UHGV virus genome: UHGV-1515682
Source of the DNA: a virus
Direction: 5' to 3' (one strand)
DNA length: 40,877 nucleotides
Shown: positions 2,988 through 8,464 of the stretch, in pieces
How the letters are laid out: each line of letters opens with the position of its first letter
Position numbering within the stretch: position 1 is the first letter of the stretch
Translations under genes and position numbers: made by a program
The notes under the pieces: generated by a model
The model's input: only the letters and a program-made list of their open reading frames with translations
The model's database searches: none
Told to the model about the DNA's origin: nothing

Positions 2988-3869
2988 TTACATAGATGTT
3001 TCGTTTAATTCTTCCCGACGAACGCTGTAAACGTCGGTGGCTTTTGCCAGCAGTTCGTCATCATCTGAAAGTTTTTGTGCAATGTATTTGTAAGCCTTAT
3101 CCAGTTCGGAGACAGTGCTGTAATTCATCGCTGCGCTGGTAAAGGCCATCAGCATTTCTTCTGGATCACGGCTATCCGCTTTACGAGTTTGCTCATCAGG
3201 CTTTTTCACTGGTTTAGCGTTGATCAGACTGTTCATTCCCGCAGCAGTAGTTGTTTGCGGAGTAATGTCTCGCTCAACGCGCGGTGCCGTTTCCTGTAAT
3301 TCGTCAGGGGTGTAAACACCGAGAAGCACATCAGGAGCGTGCAGGCGAGCCCATCGTTTCGTGCAAAGATAGGCAAGCTGCTGGCGCGGATCCTGTTCCC
3401 ACAATGGAGAGTTACGCACTCCGGCTTGCGCCATACTGATGGTAAGCTCACGGGGTTCTGCTTCTCCTTTAAGAACTGCTGACACAGTTACCGTCAGATT
3501 CGGTGATTTATCTGTTTTGCCGTTAACATTCGACCAGTCACCGCTCCAGCGATAATTCAGGCGTGTCGCCAGCAGGCTGGAAGAGGATACGACCGCGTTT
3601 ACCAACTGTGCTTCGTAGCCTAACGTTCCGTTTACCACATGCGTTTTCTGCGCCACGGCGAAAGGGTTCATTCCCCACTGTGCCGCCTGCATGGTCACCG
3701 CCAGACAATCGGCAGGTTTGCCTTCAAGATGTTTCGGTACAGTCGCTTTGCTTTGTGACATCAACTCCGCGAAACGCACCAGTTGATTCATGCCCTCCGG
3801 GCTGAAGATTGCCGCAGCAGTACCTACAGTTGCACCTGGTTGTGATGTGATTGCGATATCATTGCTCAT
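2988..3869 (-). CDS. recT: RecT-like single-strand annealing protein
   Basis: 293 aa; SPLWEQDPRQQLAYLCTKRWARL segment resembles the conserved RecT C-terminal region; sits directly downstream of and coupled (ATGA) to a PD-(D/E)XK exonuclease as in recE-recT pairs. Confidence 0.6.
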   Translation of the reverse strand: MSNDIAITSQPGATVGTAAAIFSPEGMNQLVRFAELMSQSKATVPKHLEGKPADCLAVTMQAAQWGMNPFAVAQKTHVVNGTLGYEAQLVNAVVSSSSLLATRLNYRWSGDWSNVNGKTDKSPNLTVTVSAVLKGEAEPRELTISMAQAGVRNSPLWEQDPRQQLAYLCTKRWARLHAPDVLLGVYTPDELQETAPRVERDITPQTTTAAGMNSLINAKPVKKPDEQTRKADSRDPEEMLMAFTSAAMNYSTVSELDKAYKYIAQKLSDDDELLAKATDVYSVRREELNETSM

Positions 3870-4687
3870 ACGTACATATCCTGTTTACGTGCCCAGTCAG
3901 GGCGTTTAATAATTTCCACTCCGCCCCACTCATCGTTGATGCGGCATTCGTGATAGGTATTCAGATCCCGGCGGAACAGAGCGTGCCCGGCATCGACATC
4001 CTGCGCATCCAGCTCGAACACGCGTACCGGATACCGACCACAATCAATGCTTTCGCTCACGGCAAGAAAGAAAAAACCATGCGGCTGACCAGTAACCCTC
4101 ATTGCTCCTTCGCGGTACATTGCGTCCTGCACGTGGTAGCGGAATTCCTCGATGTGGCGTGCAAAACGGTCCATATCTGCAACCTTTTTCACGTCGACGA
4201 TCACGTTGTGCTCGTTCAGCCATTTATCTGGACGAATTCGGCACAACTCACCCGTCTCTTCATCGTTCCAGTACATTGATGCTTCGCAGTAACCAGGTGC
4301 TTCCAGCATCCAGCGTGCCGCCGGGTGAGCCATTGCGCTATCACGCATCAGCTCCAGTTTCCGCCACTGCTCGGCATCAAGTACCGTAATCCCCATATCC
4401 GCTACATCACGAAGAAATGCTTCTTCGTCAGCTTTACCTTGTTTCGTCCGACGATCGAATTTCGGTGAAACAATGAAGCGTTTGTCGAACTCTCCAGGCT
4501 CCAGAAGCAGACAGTGCAATGCGGTTCCCATATCCAGTGCAGACTTTTTCTCTTCGTCTTCTGGTGCTGCCTGAACCCATTTAAGAAGCGCCGGATTCTT
4601 GGCAACCATGTCCAGTTGCGACTTACTCACGCCGTCACCGGCGTGGTAGTCTTCGTTGCTGATGTCGAAATAAATTCCCGGTTTCAT
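3866..4687 (-). CDS. PD-(D/E)XK exonuclease (RecE-like/YqaJ-like recombination exonuclease)
   Basis: 273 aa; acidic/Lys motifs (IVDVKK) consistent with PD-(D/E)XK fold; operon partner of annealase. Confidence 0.6.
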   Translation of the reverse strand: MKPGIYFDISNEDYHAGDGVSKSQLDMVAKNPALLKWVQAAPEDEEKKSALDMGTALHCLLLEPGEFDKRFIVSPKFDRRTKQGKADEEAFLRDVADMGITVLDAEQWRKLELMRDSAMAHPAARWMLEAPGYCEASMYWNDEETGELCRIRPDKWLNEHNVIVDVKKVADMDRFARHIEEFRYHVQDAMYREGAMRVTGQPHGFFFLAVSESIDCGRYPVRVFELDAQDVDAGHALFRRDLNTYHECRINDEWGGVEIIKRPDWARKQDMYV

Positions 4688-4983
4688 GCCGCGTCCCTCT
4701 GTCCATCAAGCTGATCCGCCAGATCCCAGCGGGCGATAATTGCCATTGCCTCGCGCCGGTAGGCATCCATAAGTTCTTCGAACTCAGGGCTGTCTTTAGC
4801 TGCCTCCAGCACTTCCTGGCGAACTCCTTTGCCTGTTACAGCGTCAAAAGTTGAGGCCAGTTGATGAAGCCGGATGCTCTCGATCAGTTCAACTTGTCGG
4901 TCATATAACTGTTCTGACAGGCGGTAGTCCTTGTCGAATGCCAGCATGATTTTTTGAAGATTTTTCTGCTGATTAACGTTCAT
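4684..4983 (-). CDS. Hypothetical protein (99 aa)
   Basis: ATG at 4983 (MNVNQQKN) with GAGGTG RBS; ATGA coupling to exonuclease gene. Confidence 0.5.
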   Translation of the reverse strand: MNVNQQKNLQKIMLAFDKDYRLSEQLYDRQVELIESIRLHQLASTFDAVTGKGVRQEVLEAAKDSPEFEELMDAYRREAMAIIARWDLADQLDGQRDAA

Positions 4984-4990
4984 ACCCACC

Positions 4991-6025
4991 TCAATATTTG
5001 ATATACGCGTCCTGCACTTTGCCGCCAGCGATAGCAAACATTGCTTTCTGCGCGAATTCTTCGGGAATGCCTTGGGCTATCAGATCTGCGATTACTCTGC
5101 GGTTAACGGTACGGCGATGCTCTTTATCTGCAGCTCGGCGCGCTTCTTCGTCGGCGATACGCTTCTGTTCGTCAAGGCGGGCTTTTTCTGCCGCCTCTTG
5201 GCGTCGGCGTTCCTCGGCAACGGCTTCTTCTTTTTCGCGTCGTGCACGCTGCTCTGCTTCAATTCGCTGACGTTCTGCTACTTCAGCACGTGCTTTTTCT
5301 TCCGCCGCCAGGCGTGCCGCAGCCTCAATTTCAGCTTTCGCTTTTTGTTCAGCTTCGAGCCTGGCCTGTTCAGCAGCTTCCCGGCGGATATTCTCTTCTC
5401 GCTCAATGCGCGCTTTTTCCTCCGCTTCTTTGCGAAGTCGCTCCAGCTCAGCGGCTTCATGCTCGTGTTTTTGAGCTACTGCGAGTGATTCTTCCAGTTT
5501 CTGGATGGTTGAATCCTTGGCTACTCCAGCTTCTGCTGCGTACTCCTGCCAACTTTCATCAAGTGCTACTGATTTAGCCTCTTGAATTCGTTCCTGAATA
5601 TCAGATGATGGCAAGTAGTTTCCGGAGAGATCGATCACGTCAGCTAGTGCTCGCAAATTTGTCAGGCGTTGTTGCAGTGCTTCAGTGCGTAATTTCTCAG
5701 CATTTTCCCACTCGGTGAGTGGGCGGCGTACTTCATCACGAAGCCGATCGCATTCGGTTACGAAGCGTCGTAACTCTGCTTCAACTACTTTCGGCTGTTC
5801 TTTCAGGCGTTTCAGATAATCACGTCCTGGTTTTTCTACCGCTGTTTTACTTCTTGAAACCTTCGCAGCCAGAGATGCAATGCGCTTTCTGCCTTTGTCT
5901 GTGCTAATGTCAGGCACTTCATTAACACCTTCACGGATCTGCTCGAGAAACTTTTCCAGCCCTTTTTCAACGTAAATTCTTGGTGCCATGTCTGGTGTGA
6001 TTTCGATGATTGATAATTCACTCAT
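4991..6025 (-). CDS. Hypothetical protein with long Glu/Ala/Arg/Lys-rich coiled-coil segment
   Basis: 344 aa; ~120 aa of EAxRxxAEEKAR-type repeats between N- and C-terminal globular regions; DNA 5040-5500 correspondingly repetitive. Confidence 0.6.
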   Translation of the reverse strand: MSELSIIEITPDMAPRIYVEKGLEKFLEQIREGVNEVPDISTDKGRKRIASLAAKVSRSKTAVEKPGRDYLKRLKEQPKVVEAELRRFVTECDRLRDEVRRPLTEWENAEKLRTEALQQRLTNLRALADVIDLSGNYLPSSDIQERIQEAKSVALDESWQEYAAEAGVAKDSTIQKLEESLAVAQKHEHEAAELERLRKEAEEKARIEREENIRREAAEQARLEAEQKAKAEIEAAARLAAEEKARAEVAERQRIEAEQRARREKEEAVAEERRRQEAAEKARLDEQKRIADEEARRAADKEHRRTVNRRVIADLIAQGIPEEFAQKAMFAIAGGKVQDAYIKY

Positions 6026-6183
6026 TTGCTAACTTCCTCCCATATCTCGTTATCGTTGGCCACATCGCGAGCTTCTTTGCTGACGAAAGCCCACTTAATG
6101 CCTTCCTGTAAGGTGCTGAACTTCCAGCTCATGAATCCGCATGCAGTAACGCAGTACCAACCGTTGATGATTTTCCACTGCAT
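6021..6183 (-). CDS. Small hypothetical protein (53 aa), first gene of leftward early operon
   Basis: ATG 6183 preceded by GAGGT; stop overlaps next start (ATGA at 6022-6025); below 60-aa cutoff of ORF track. Confidence 0.4.
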
Positions 6184-6202
6184 AACTTGTTACCTCGGTC
6201 TG

Positions 6203-6217
6203 TTACCGTTGAGGTAA
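6203..6217. promoter_or_regulatory. Dyad operator-like site ttaccgttgaggtaa (OL-proximal)
   Basis: Perfect TTACC-N5-GGTAA; overlaps -10/+1 of predicted leftward promoter. Confidence 0.55.
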
Positions 6218-6245
6218 TAATTATGCTTATTTGGTTTGGTGTCAA
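6217..6245 (-). promoter_or_regulatory. Putative leftward early promoter (PL-like): TTGACA-17-AATTAT
   Basis: Minus-strand TTGACA (6245-6240) and AATTAT (6222-6217) with 17-nt spacer, flanked by two dyad sites 62 bp apart. Confidence 0.45.
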
Positions 6246-6292: not shown

Positions 6293-6316
6293 AAAAAAGC
6301 CGCCATGAGGCGGCTT
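6293..6316 (-). terminator. Rho-independent terminator after repressor gene
   Basis: Minus-strand hairpin GCCGCC-TCAT-GGCGGC followed by T6 (A-run 6293-6298 on + strand). Confidence 0.6.
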
Positions 6317-6336: not shown

Positions 6337-6921
6337 TTATTGTTTGCTTTTTTCGTTCTGGTTGATGACAAATTCAATGTAACTTTCGATCTTTGCTTTC
6401 TCTGTTTCAGGTAACAATGCGTAGCGCGAGCGGTCATAGTTGATAGTTGCAGGGTCGTGCGGGTGAATCAGTAGTTCATATCCGTGACGCCCGAATGCAG
6501 ATGCAACATTCTCCAGGGTGGAAATGGAAACGCTGACCTCATTGTTTAACAGGCGGCTGATTGTCACCTGGGCTACGCCGGATGCGCGGTGAAGTTTTCC
6601 CTGTGTTGAAAGGTCGCGGCTTTCGCTCATCCAGCGTTCCAGGTTGTGAGCCGCCAGCTGGCCAATGTCGCTTGGGCCGACAGGCTGAAAACCTTCCTGA
6701 GAAAGCGAGCGATCGATATCAAGCCAGTTACGGGGTTTATTGGCGGCAGCTTCAATTTTTCGTGCAACCTGGTCGCCGATAACCTTCTTGCCAAGAGCCC
6801 AGCGGTTTACCAGATTTGCCTGAGTTCCAAGTTTTTCTGCCATCCGCGTCTGAACACCATTGAATTCACGGTCGATCAAGTCGTTGAGATTTTGCCTGCG
6901 GACGTCCTGGATACTTTTCAT
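6337..6921 (-). CDS. CI-like repressor with two HTH (XRE-type) regions and no recognisable S24 peptidase domain
   Basis: 194 aa; two XRE-like HTH stretches (…TRMAEKLGTQANLVNRWALGKK… and …ASGVAQVTISRLLNNEVSVSISTLENVA…); divergent from cro-like gene across an operator-rich intergenic region; no S24-like Ser/Lys motifs. Confidence 0.65.
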   Translation of the reverse strand: MKSIQDVRRQNLNDLIDREFNGVQTRMAEKLGTQANLVNRWALGKKVIGDQVARKIEAAANKPRNWLDIDRSLSQEGFQPVGPSDIGQLAAHNLERWMSESRDLSTQGKLHRASGVAQVTISRLLNNEVSVSISTLENVASAFGRHGYELLIHPHDPATINYDRSRYALLPETEKAKIESYIEFVINQNEKSKQ

Positions 6922-7672: not shown

Positions 7673-8464
7673 ATGAGCAGACATGCAACAGATTGGGCCT
7701 GGGAGACAGATCCAGGTAGCTCGTCATTAAAGCTCATACTGCTCTCGATGGCTGACAGAGCCGATGAATATAACCTCTGCTACCCCAGCATAGAACGCCT
7801 CGTTAAAGACACTTGCCTGAATAAAAAAACCGTGCAGGCCGGACTTATATCGCTCATGAAAATGGGGCTTATTTCAGATACCGGAGAGAGAAAGGGAGCG
7901 ACGAAAAGAGTGCGGGTTTTCTCTCTTAATATAACCAAAAACGGGAACATTAAAGGCAACCGGGAAGGGGGTAATGAACCCGAAAACGGTAATGTTACCG
8001 AAAACGGGAATATACCCAAAAACGGGATGTTGAATGATCCCAAAAACGGGATCCAGAACCAGTCATATAACCAGTCATTTAACCAAGAGAGGGAGAGCAG
8101 GACAAAAACCGGGGATTCTGTTCCTCATGACCCCGGCGCAAACAACGCCGTGATGAATAACTTTGTTCCTCCTGGTGGGATAGGGCAATTAGGAAAATTT
8201 GTCATGCATGAACAATGGCAGCCATCAGATGACTTTCTTCGGAAAAGCTCATTGCAGGGAATCTACCTGGACAGTCTGCCAACGGCACAGGAACTTGCAG
8301 AGTTCAGAATTTACTGGATGGCTGAGGGTAAGGCATACCATCAGGCACAGTGGGAGCAGAAGCTGGCAAGGCGGCTGCAGATTAGCAGACAGAAGCAATC
8401 AACATTACCTGATAACAACGTTCCGCACTGGAACAGCCCTGAAGCATGGGAGGATTTCTTGTGA
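7673..8464 (+). CDS. Replication initiator, lambda O-like, with iteron-encoded repetitive linker
   Basis: 263 aa; N-terminal winged-helix-like region resembling lambda O N-terminus; central NGN/KNG repeats encoded by DNA iterons; followed by P-like gene. Confidence 0.65.
   Translation: MSRHATDWAWETDPGSSSLKLILLSMADRADEYNLCYPSIERLVKDTCLNKKTVQAGLISLMKMGLISDTGERKGATKRVRVFSLNITKNGNIKGNREGGNEPENGNVTENGNIPKNGMLNDPKNGIQNQSYNQSFNQERESRTKTGDSVPHDPGANNAVMNNFVPPGGIGQLGKFVMHEQWQPSDDFLRKSSLQGIYLDSLPTAQELAEFRIYWMAEGKAYHQAQWEQKLARRLQISRQKQSTLPDNNVPHWNSPEAWEDFL
7935..8052. repeat. Origin-like iteron array (five copies of CC(C/G)AAAACGG(G/T)A) inside the O-like gene
   Basis: Copies at 7935, 7978, 7997, 8015, 8038 followed by two accagtcat repeats; same arrangement as ori-lambda inside gene O. 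Confidence 0.6.

Follow-up and report, generated by a model that had tools for sequence, protein, structure and literature searches.

PHROG 1376, a large phage protein family with a charged helical tract, as a possible accessory part of SSAP/exonuclease recombination modules

Phage exonuclease/annealase pairs drive recombineering, and accessory proteins such as Gam and SSB set their performance in a given host. In lambda, Gam is encoded upstream of the exonuclease/annealase pair. In Firmicutes phages, accessory genes of the Mu-Gam-like, Sipho_Gp157 (PF05565), DUF1351 (PF07083) and DUF2483 families lie within Erf, Sak4, RecT and Red-beta modules or immediately upstream of them, and the genes at that position were argued to be functionally analogous (PMC8093625). 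Oenococcus phage phi9805, for example, has the gene order DUF1351-Sak4-SSB. Here we describe a 344-aa protein that is encoded in the same slot in a 40,877-nt virus genome (UHGV-1515682, hereafter the window).

The ORF listing places the 344-aa ORF, a member of PHROG 1376, on the minus strand at 4991..6025 with the stop codon included (ATG at 6025-6023, TGA at 4993-4991), and GGGAGGAAG is found 8 nt 5' of its start codon. The sequence-only reading had put this gene at the head of the recombination operon. We found that a 53-aa ORF (6022..6183, minus strand; phrog_898) comes before it as the operon's first gene, and that the stop of this ORF overlaps the start of the 344-aa ORF (ATGA). Downstream, a 99-aa acidic ORF (4684..4983, minus strand; phrog_856, E 4e-55) begins 7 nt past the stop, across the junction TGA-GGTGGGT-ATG. 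It is followed by a RecE-like PD-(D/E)XK exonuclease gene (3866..4687, minus strand; PF12684 E 1e-22, phrog_412 E 6e-127), whose start overlaps the 99-aa ORF stop (ATGA), and by the gene for a RecT single-strand annealing protein (2988..3869, minus strand; PF03837 E 1e-31), whose start overlaps the exonuclease stop (ATGA). The exonuclease is of the short form, at 273 aa. Thus, the exonuclease and annealase genes do lie downstream on the same strand, as had been read from the sequence, and the gene forms part of the early-left recombination operon; its supposed direct contact with the exonuclease gene is broken by the 99-aa ORF. Successive genes among the five of the operon, from the 53-aa ORF to RecT, either overlap by 4 nt or are 7 nt apart, with translational coupling across all of them. 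A consensus scan matched TTGACA-17-AATTAT at 6217..6245 on the minus strand (10/12 matches), downstream of the repressor gene's terminator (6297-6316); since the scan returned as many sites in total as expected from shuffled sequence, this site is only a candidate operon promoter.

The 344-aa gene is a real, conserved phage gene. Its product matches phrog_1376 over its full length (E 2.3e-122; residues 2-344 against positions 5-362 of the 362-position profile), and 4,963 representatives of 50%-identity clusters show similarity to its N-terminal 190 aa at E<=1e-3. It is 99% identical to Orf45 ("hypothetical") of the epsilon15-like Uetakevirus Escherichia phage phiv142-3. The family spans phages of Gamma-, Beta- and Alphaproteobacteria, and the gene occurs in only 27 of 72,556 plasmid records, 26 of them non-mobilizable and most of the listed ones phage-sized. 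PHROG 1376 is a very large, phage-restricted family, which has no Pfam model, assigned function or solved relative. The protein had no match in Pfam or PADLOC and only a compositional TolA match in NCBIfam, and 108 relatives scanned against Pfam had just scattered single low-complexity matches. The PDB yielded nothing, whether searched with the sequence or with an N-domain profile, and a BFVD fold search returned solely uncharacterised phage proteins. A literature search on PHROG 1376, Sf6 gp33 and TolA with Erf/RecT found no functional study. The function had been called unknown from the sequence, and every library searched (PHROG, Pfam, NCBIfam, PADLOC, PDB) bears this out.

The protein has three parts, a core, a charged tract and a C-terminal module, and nearly every full-length representative shows this architecture. 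An acidic N-terminal cap (residues 1-35; 5921..6025, minus strand) with two short helices in the AlphaFold2 model (H11-17, H24-33) shows 31% mean identity to relatives, and the pI of residues 1-40 is 4.3. The conserved basic helical core (residues 36-115; 5681..5920, minus strand) has the highest mean identity of all regions, 58%, and a pI of 10.0 for residues 41-115. It carries the motif VPDxxTxKGRxxxASxAxxVxxSK...G...K...D.L....RxPLTxxE, in which K60 and P102 are invariant across relatives and D39, T42, G45, R46, S51, A53, G67, K75, D93, R100 and E107 are at least 94% conserved. The variable middle (residues 116-185; 5471..5680, minus strand; 27% mean identity) comprises the end of a long helix, a small subdomain and the start of the rod helix (modelled helices H140-152 and H157 onward); in a close subfamily, it is swapped for a different, shorter sequence. 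The length over which the N-terminal domain aligns hardly changes across the family. The first 190 or so residues of the protein had been taken for a globular domain, which the AlphaFold2 model contradicts: rather than a compact globule, it is all-helical (pLDDT 95) and includes an 84-residue helix. The models as a whole are confident (pLDDT 95 and 90) and helical throughout. The short C-terminal domain seen after the tract is indeed present, as a helix-loop-helix module ending in I-K-Y (residues 306-344; 4994..5110, minus strand; pLDDT 93-97). The family consensus of this module, about 45 aa long, is xRxADKxHRxxINxxALxALxxxGxxExxAKxxxxxIAxGxxxxVxIxY, and Y344 and I342 are conserved at 91% and 88%.

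Between the variable middle and this module lies the Glu/Ala/Arg/Lys tract, a predicted charged helical rod (residues 186-305; 5111..5470, minus strand). It consists of 26% E, 24% A, 21% R and 7% K, 78% in all, against 35-42% in the flanking parts, and its net charge is close to zero. Opposite-charge pairs at i/i+3 and i/i+4 number 0.50 per residue versus 0.31 in shuffled sequence (family medians 0.35 versus 0.23). No Gly or Pro occurs between residues 168 and 318, and the median Gly/Pro-free run across the family is 161 aa. The stretch of about 120 aa of nearly pure E/A/R/K described earlier is thus confirmed, but not its heptad-like character: we found no 3.5-residue peak in 100 family tracts (power 0.85, equal to background). 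LIVMFWY make up only 10-12% of the tract, and a weak periodicity peak at 3.65-3.7 appears only when Ala is counted. A canonical heptad coiled coil was therefore rejected on its few hydrophobics and the lack of a 3.5-residue signal.

The DNA of the tract had also been described as visibly repetitive. Tandem Repeats Finder detected no tandem repeat inside it, so a slippage-prone repeat tract was rejected; the sole direct repeats are three 56-nt copies with 61-73% identity. The repetitive look is codon and composition bias. The suggestion that the tract might vary in length between relatives held when homologues were compared: family-wide, the tract ranges from 61 to 201 aa. Proteins of one close subfamily are commonly 308, 319 or 330 aa long, in steps of 11 aa; such a step is about three helical turns, and the stepping is clear in that subfamily only. 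AlphaFold2 predicts the tract as helical apart from residues 242-248 (pLDDT<50), where it is folded back into a spectrin-like three-helix bundle, so a straight-rod geometry is not established. A fixed bundle as the conserved architecture also appears doubtful, because tract length varies as noted while the N-terminal length is nearly constant, and the middle of the tract shows no excess of turn-forming residues.

We then compared the neighbourhoods of 80 loci, which represent the closest relatives and are not mutually independent. An SSAP gene was found no more than four genes downstream in 74 of the 77 IMG/VR viral loci (RecT 64, ERF 5, Rad52-like 4, AAA_24/Sak4-like 1). Other partners at related loci are DUF3799 or YqaJ exonucleases and SSB. 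Elsewhere, Bet-like genes occur near family members. Distant members with 33-37% identity (P0247, P0266, P0183, P0257, P0213) keep the recombination-gene neighbourhood, and in P0266 the family gene is embedded between ERF and YqaJ. The same neighbourhood was found in Pseudomonas phages JBD44 and Ab31, in Acinetobacter phage TCUAN1 and in Yersinia, Shewanella and Vibrio phages. The two exceptions still lie among DNA-metabolism genes. The recombination-gene neighbourhood persists even where recombinase family, exonuclease family and phage type are all different. Because the early-operon gene order of temperate phages is inherited as a block, this synteny overstates functional coupling. At 10 of the 77 loci, the slot directly between the family gene and the recombinase is taken by a lambda Gam homologue (L062, L067) or, in 8 of them, by a Gam-like protein of cluster c14 (hhalign 94.7%). 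In phage Sf6, the homologue gp33 coexists with Abc2, kil and cIII.

These neighbours bear on what the protein might do. Since the gene is nearly always beside phage recombination genes, its product is probably a helper of recombination systems and not a host-killing or anti-RecBCD protein. One alternative makes it a functional counterpart of lambda Gam, of Mu Gam or of Gp157, which would inhibit a host nuclease (RecBCD, SbcCD or another) or protect DNA ends and thereby preserve linear phage DNA and recombination intermediates. We regard this as quite improbable, although its position upstream of the SSAP is the one that the Firmicutes accessory genes occupy, as ORF8 does upstream of Sak4 in Streptococcus phage O1205, neither Gam nor Abc2 was recognised in the window, and the Ab31 operon gains from an added RecBCD inhibitor (PMC6438905). 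A nuclease inhibitor would be expected to exclude Gam and Abc2 mutually, yet the family gene co-occurs with Gam or Gam-like genes at the 10 loci above and with Abc2 in Sf6. The gene is thus no stand-in for known RecBCD inhibitors; the sequence-only suggestion of an anti-RecBCD function fails on this point, and a Gam-like role of this kind is unlikely. Furthermore, homology is not detectable (hhalign 0.4% for Gp157 of O1205 and 3.3% for a shallow, 6-sequence alignment of DUF1351; no Pfam match, the lambda Gam and Mu Gam models included), and the protein is near-zero in net charge or basic, unlike an acidic DNA mimic. The small acidic ORF next to it suits the Gam slot better: this 99-aa ORF sits where Gam or Gam-like proteins are encoded at other loci, and appears to be the better Gam candidate of the two.

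A host-takeover or counter-defence role that is mechanistically unrelated to recombination is also doubtful. The protein might then block an immune system that detects recombinases, SSB or DNA ends, or modulate cell division or the nucleoid, and the synteny would be mere conserved early-operon layout. The family gene does stand among the accessory genes ral, cIII and kil in lambdoid relatives (Sf6, a Yersinia phage), inhibitors and decoys are often long helical rods, and recombineering with the Ab31 operon works without the family protein. However, PADLOC gave no match, and counter-defence genes are usually patchy and fast-evolving, whereas the core motif is strongly conserved across phages of three proteobacterial classes. 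The recombination-gene neighbours are also kept through changes of recombinase, exonuclease and phage type. A kil-type function, as had been proposed, is not borne out either, since the gene associates with several unrelated families of recombinases and the Sf6 homologue coexists with kil and cIII. The names that submitters gave to many database records point in yet another direction ("TolA protein", "cell envelope biogenesis protein", "colicin import membrane protein"), as does a weak NCBIfam match to TolA (PRK09510, E 0.0015). The chance of a TolA-like cell-envelope protein is nevertheless negligible. The match reaches 17.7 bits where the curated cut-off is 213, and it aligns only residues 155-301; being confined to this E/A/K-rich stretch, it is compositional. 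No membrane anchor was found (on the Kyte-Doolittle scale, residues 315-333 have the highest mean of any 19-residue stretch, 0.73, with nothing comparable N-terminally), nor was the TolA C-terminal domain in Pfam scans of the query and 108 relatives. TolA family membership was rejected on the score, the missing anchor and the absent domain.

We tentatively favour a different possibility, namely that the PHROG 1376 protein is an accessory part of phage SSAP/exonuclease (Red- or RecET-type) recombination-replication modules, acting as a rod-like adaptor. We infer this function from gene neighbourhood and predicted shape. In such an adaptor, the rod would be rigid, the putative nucleic-acid-binding basic head would contact a DNA end or ss/ds junction, or else an acidic partner, and the C-terminal module, with its sub-threshold likeness to RuvA's RuvB-binding domain III, would dock a protein partner. 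The charged helix would space head and tail by up to ~22 nm if straight and by about half of that if folded back. The recombinases are unrelated to one another while the head and tail motifs are conserved, which makes a shared substrate or host factor a likelier target than the recombinase itself. The Bet-Exo-SSB (BAS) operon of Ab31 recombines without its family member, Orf39 (PMC6438905), so the family protein is dispensable for the core reaction. It might assist or protect recombination-dependent replication without substituting for Gam and without being needed for the basic annealing reaction.

A more specific version of this adaptor reading, which we consider rather unlikely, would make the protein an overlooked fourth Red/RecET component in Proteobacteria: a rigid rod of ~20 nm, with its basic head on a DNA end or ss/ds junction and its C-terminal module docking a conserved host factor (SSB, clamp or helicase), which couples annealing to replication or holds two DNA ends. 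If this is true, adding the family protein to exo/SSAP pairs, such as Orf39 to the Ab31 BAS operon, should raise dsDNA or linear-linear recombineering. The family, with about 5,000 clusters, stands beside at least four unrelated recombinase families in phages of Escherichia, Klebsiella, Pseudomonas, Acinetobacter, Vibrio and others, and its protein is absent from operons tested so far, e.g. Ab31 BAS. A role in end handling or replication coupling would promise better genome engineering in non-model Proteobacteria, and would also account for a conserved, ignored part of phage recombination modules. If there is no such role, the family would offer a clean case of a "TolA" annotation spreading from composition alone.

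Compared with known systems, the tract resembles ER/K single alpha-helix (SAH) domains and TolA domain II. Dominance of E, R, K and A, few hydrophobics, no heptad signal, enriched opposite-charge pairs and a long Gly/Pro-free run are common to all of them, and by the SAH sequence features of composition, charge pairs and a Gly/Pro-free stretch (residues 168-318) the tract conforms. It differs from a classical ER/K SAH in its high Ala content (24%) and in the AlphaFold2 fold-back instead of one straight helix. The C-terminal module shares the motif a-L-x-a-L-v-x-x-G-h-s-x-x-x-A-x-x-v-v-x-x-I with RuvA domain III and UBA domains. In a PDB profile search with this module, RuvA domain III chains took 5 of the 10 top matches, at E 0.14-0.7, which is below significance; among 52 members scanned, RuvA_C came up in 3 (best E 0.012) and UBA_7 in 2, all sub-threshold. 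Those domains have three helices, whereas the module is modelled with two helices and an extended tail ending in I-x-Y. The 344-aa protein has no Walker A/B head, unlike SMC/Rad50/SbcC-type ATPases.

Lambda Gam has the same operon place, but is an acidic protein of ~100-138 aa with an unrelated sequence, far from the 344 aa and near-zero or basic charge seen here. DUF1351, at ~300 aa, is closer in size, and the Firmicutes accessory families are likewise helix-rich. The hhalign comparison with DUF1351 (an alignment of 6 sequences) covered 10 columns around the invariant Pro, and hmmscan gave no match. PHROG 1376 differs from these families in belonging to phages of Proteobacteria and in combining a long E/A/R/K rod with an I-x-Y module, which is not known among them. 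The N-terminal region of RecE (residues 1-587) was rejected as a homologue (hhalign probability 0.15%, BLASTP E 0.76). Fu et al. reportedly showed in 2012 that linear-linear recombination needs the N-terminal ~590 residues of full-length RecE. Like the PHROG 1376 protein, this region is extra non-nuclease protein mass that is encoded together with a RecE-type nuclease domain and RecT.

We found a single minus-strand ORF running from 6025 to 4991, with an ATG start and a TGA stop, that encodes 344 aa; GGGAGGAAG is located 8 nt 5' of its start. Escherichia phage phiv142-3, an epsilon15-like Uetakevirus, is a close match to the window, and its Orf45 ("hypothetical protein") is the 99% identical counterpart of the 344-aa protein. 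On the minus strand, the repressor gene (6337-6921) comes first, and a terminator-like hairpin (6316-6297) separates it from a promoter-like sequence pattern (TTGACA-17-AATTAT, 6245-6217). Downstream of this site lies the operon's first gene, a 53-aa Trp/Cys-rich ORF (6022-6183, phrog_898), whose stop codon shares an ATGA with the start codon of the 344-aa ORF (4991-6025, phrog_1376). A 99-aa acidic ORF with a pI of ~5 (4684-4983, phrog_856) is located between the 344-aa gene and a RecE-like PD-(D/E)XK exonuclease (3866-4687; PF12684, phrog_412), followed by RecT (2988-3869; PF03837), all on the minus strand. ATGA overlaps join the five genes from the 53-aa ORF to RecT, save one 7-nt spacer, and they therefore form one translationally coupled unit.

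Three further features were observed in this region. The stretch at 6187-6220, which lies between the first ORF and the -10 of the promoter-like site, forms an imperfect palindrome (TTGTTACCTC...GAGGTAATAA) whose stem has 13 pairs; it may serve as a repressor operator or as a hairpin in the 5' UTR. The 194-aa repressor (6337-6921, minus strand) has weak HTH-family matches at two separate spots (residues 24-71 and 106-148), which suggests a tandem-HTH type rather than a CI type with a peptidase domain. At the position of the phiv142-3 replication genes, a 263-aa ORF (7673-8464, plus strand) contains an Asn/Gly-rich low-complexity stretch (NGNIKGNREGGNEPENGNVTENGNIPKNG).

The 344-aa protein matches phrog_1376, a family of unknown function, from end to end (E 2e-122). 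It had no match in Pfam, PADLOC or the PDB, and a Pfam scan of 108 relatives together with profile searches of the PDB found nothing. The family is real, conserved and phage-restricted. When residues 1-190 were used as the query of an exhaustive HMMER search, 4,963 cluster representatives passed E<=1e-3 and 2,749 of them also passed E<=1e-10; the hosts are Gamma-, Beta- and some Alphaproteobacteria. Only 27 of 72,556 plasmid records carry the gene; 26 of the 27 are non-mobilizable, and most of the listed ones are phage-sized.

Most full-length representatives (300-390 aa) share one architecture, with conserved ends, a basic head and a tail, on either side of a charged helical tract that varies. 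The basic core (residues 36-115) has a mean identity of 58%, and its residues 41-115 have a pI of 10.0. No variation occurs at K60 or P102, and D39, T42, G45, R46, S51, A53, G67, K75, D93, R100 and E107 are conserved at >=94%. Conservation is low in the middle region between core and tract, and the family tracts are composed of E/A/R/K/Q. The ~45-aa C-terminal module has the consensus D-K-x-H-R-x-x-I-N...G-h-s-E-x-x-A-K...I-A-x-G...V-x-I-x-Y and ends in tyrosine (or Phe). This motif looks like RuvA domain III. When a profile of 52 modules was compared with the PDB, RuvA domain III chains made up 5 of the 10 top matches (E 0.14-0.7), while RuvA_C was matched by 3/52 modules (best E 0.012) and UBA_7 by 2/52. 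We treat this likeness, which stays below significance, as a lead and not as a result.

The sequence-only reading had described a globular N-terminus followed by heptad-like E/A/R/K repeats in repetitive DNA. The composition was borne out, as residues 186-305 are 78% E/A/R/K compared with 35-42% elsewhere in the protein. The DNA is biased in composition and not repetitive: Tandem Repeats Finder shows no array within the tract, where the sole direct repeats are three copies of 56 nt at 61-73% identity. Nor was a heptad pattern found in 100 family tracts, whose hydrophobic periodicity lacks a 3.5-residue peak. These tracts show a weak peak at 3.65-3.7, only when Ala is counted, and bulky hydrophobics account for 10-12% of residues. 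Opposite-charge pairs at i/i+3 and i/i+4 are enriched, at 0.35 per residue in family tracts (0.23 when shuffled) and 0.50 in the 344-aa protein (0.31 when shuffled). In AlphaFold2's prediction for residues 1-190 (pLDDT 95), the N-terminus is all-helical and not globular, and includes an 84-residue helix.

AlphaFold2 also bends the tract back on itself at residues 242-248 (pLDDT<50). We distrust this fold-back because Gly and Pro are absent from residues 168-318, because family tracts hold only 0.37 Gly/Pro per 100 residues, almost all near the edges, and because tract length varies three-fold among relatives (61-201 aa, median about 140), as the earlier reading had thought possible, while the N-terminal domain keeps a near-constant aligned length. 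The sequences fit a continuous charged helix of ~150 residues, which would span roughly 22 nm if straight and could be a single alpha-helix or an oligomer partner. Proteins of one close subfamily are most often 308, 319 or 330 aa long, and their alignment shows 11-aa and 33-aa blocks. Among pairs at least 80% identical, distinct inserted segments are most commonly 11 aa, then 43, 30, 3 and 22 aa. Since 11 residues make about three helical turns, such steps would preserve the rotational phase between head and tail; this is suggestive only, and does not hold in all subfamilies.

The family is persistently linked to recombination and replication genes. For the 80 closest IMG/VR loci, downstream ORFs were clustered and cluster representatives identified with Pfam. 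In 74 of the 77 usable loci a single-strand annealing protein (SSAP) is encoded on the same strand no more than four genes downstream, a count to be read with the caution that early-operon gene order is inherited en bloc and the 80 loci are mutually related. These SSAPs are RecT (64), ERF (5), Rad52-like (4) and AAA_24/Sak4-like (1), and the accompanying genes encode DUF3799 or YqaJ exonucleases and SSB. In one locus (L054, 7814-9313), the place where RecT is expected, 3' of the DUF3799 exonuclease, is taken by a 499-aa ORF carrying a Mu-transposase C-terminal domain.

Distant members (33-37% identity), checked independently of this sample, showed the same pattern. The family gene precedes a small ORF and a DUF3799 exonuclease (P0247), ERF and YqaJ (P0183), YqaJ and SSB (P0257) or ERF (P0213), or stands between ERF and YqaJ (P0266). 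Two contexts have no recognisable SSAP, yet lie amid DNA-metabolism genes, one with an RNase_T exonuclease and endonuclease V and the other with a split DnaE-type polymerase. At L103 (4580-8080), the gene of a distant member has no recombinase behind it; in its place come a PHP-domain ORF, a DNA methylase and DnaE-type polymerase fragments that resemble a split DNA polymerase III alpha.

The neighbourhood persists even when the family of the recombinase or of the nuclease, or the type of phage, changes. The family gene is followed by Erf and an exonuclease in Pseudomonas JBD44 (gp65), by Bet, Exo and SSB in Pseudomonas phage Ab31 (Orf39; L098, 3495-4559), by Bet in Acinetobacter TCUAN1, by cIII, a small ORF, Erf and an OB-fold protein in a Yersinia phage, and by a RecE-like exonuclease and RecT in Shewanella 1/41. 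In Vibrio PS15B.3 (L094), an HNH endonuclease gene (3314-3979) splits the RecE-like exonuclease and Bet-like annealase pair downstream of the family gene. The N-terminal region of RecE itself proved unrelated to the 344-aa protein.

This position had earlier suggested an anti-RecBCD or kil-type function. In Sf6, the family member gp33 lies upstream of cIII, kil and Erf. The anti-RecBCD proposal was not borne out by the family gene's neighbours. By tblastn, lambda Gam homologues lie immediately 3' of the family gene at L062 (5968-6246, E 4e-13) and L067 (5935-6204, E 1e-12), a 97-aa protein (cluster c14; hhalign to Gam, 94.7%) fills the same place in eight further loci, and Sf6 carries Abc2 alongside gp33. 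The family therefore coexists with known RecBCD inhibitors, and we regard a nuclease inhibitor as improbable. The place between family gene and recombinase is a "Gam slot", occupied in the window by the 99-aa ORF (4684-4983, minus strand). This ORF matches cluster c11 by hhalign (94.5%), has no detectable kinship to Gam (2.3%), and is a candidate new nuclease inhibitor. In Firmicutes phages, Mu-Gam-like, Gp157, DUF2483 or DUF1351 genes lie upstream of Erf and Sak4 and were argued to be analogous (PMC8093625); homology to Gp157 (0.4%) or to DUF1351 (3.3%, in a shallow alignment) was not detected.

A host-takeover or counter-defence protein unrelated to recombination would suit an early operon position; set beside the constant recombination neighbourhood, we consider it unlikely. 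The sole NCBIfam match, TolA, scored 17.7 bits where the cut-off is 213, which refutes family membership, and a TolA-like role deserves practically no credence. We favour an accessory of the DNA recombination/replication module, which is somewhat probable. Its specific mechanism, a rod-shaped adaptor, is possible and rather doubtful, and role and mechanism combined are held tentatively. The basic head would bind DNA or else an acidic partner; docking of a protein would fall to the C-terminal tail. The target would more likely be a common substrate or host factor than the recombinase, because head and tail motifs stay constant beside recombinases that are unrelated to one another.

Databases already listed the gene, annotated as a hypothetical protein and assigned to a PHROG without a known function. 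What is new is the finding that a large Pfam-less family accompanies SSAP modules almost constantly in Proteobacteria phages, together with the family's rod-plus-two-ends anatomy and its distinction from Gam-type inhibitors. The function we propose is open to direct testing in recombineering assays. Recombineering in Pseudomonas works with Ab31 Orf38-Orf37-Orf36 (Bet, Exo, SSB) in the absence of Orf39 (PMC6438905). Orf39, which ends 8 nt upstream of Orf38, is a family member, and the family protein is therefore dispensable for the core reaction. Left out of the published Ab31 BAS system, Orf39 offers a ready-made test case.
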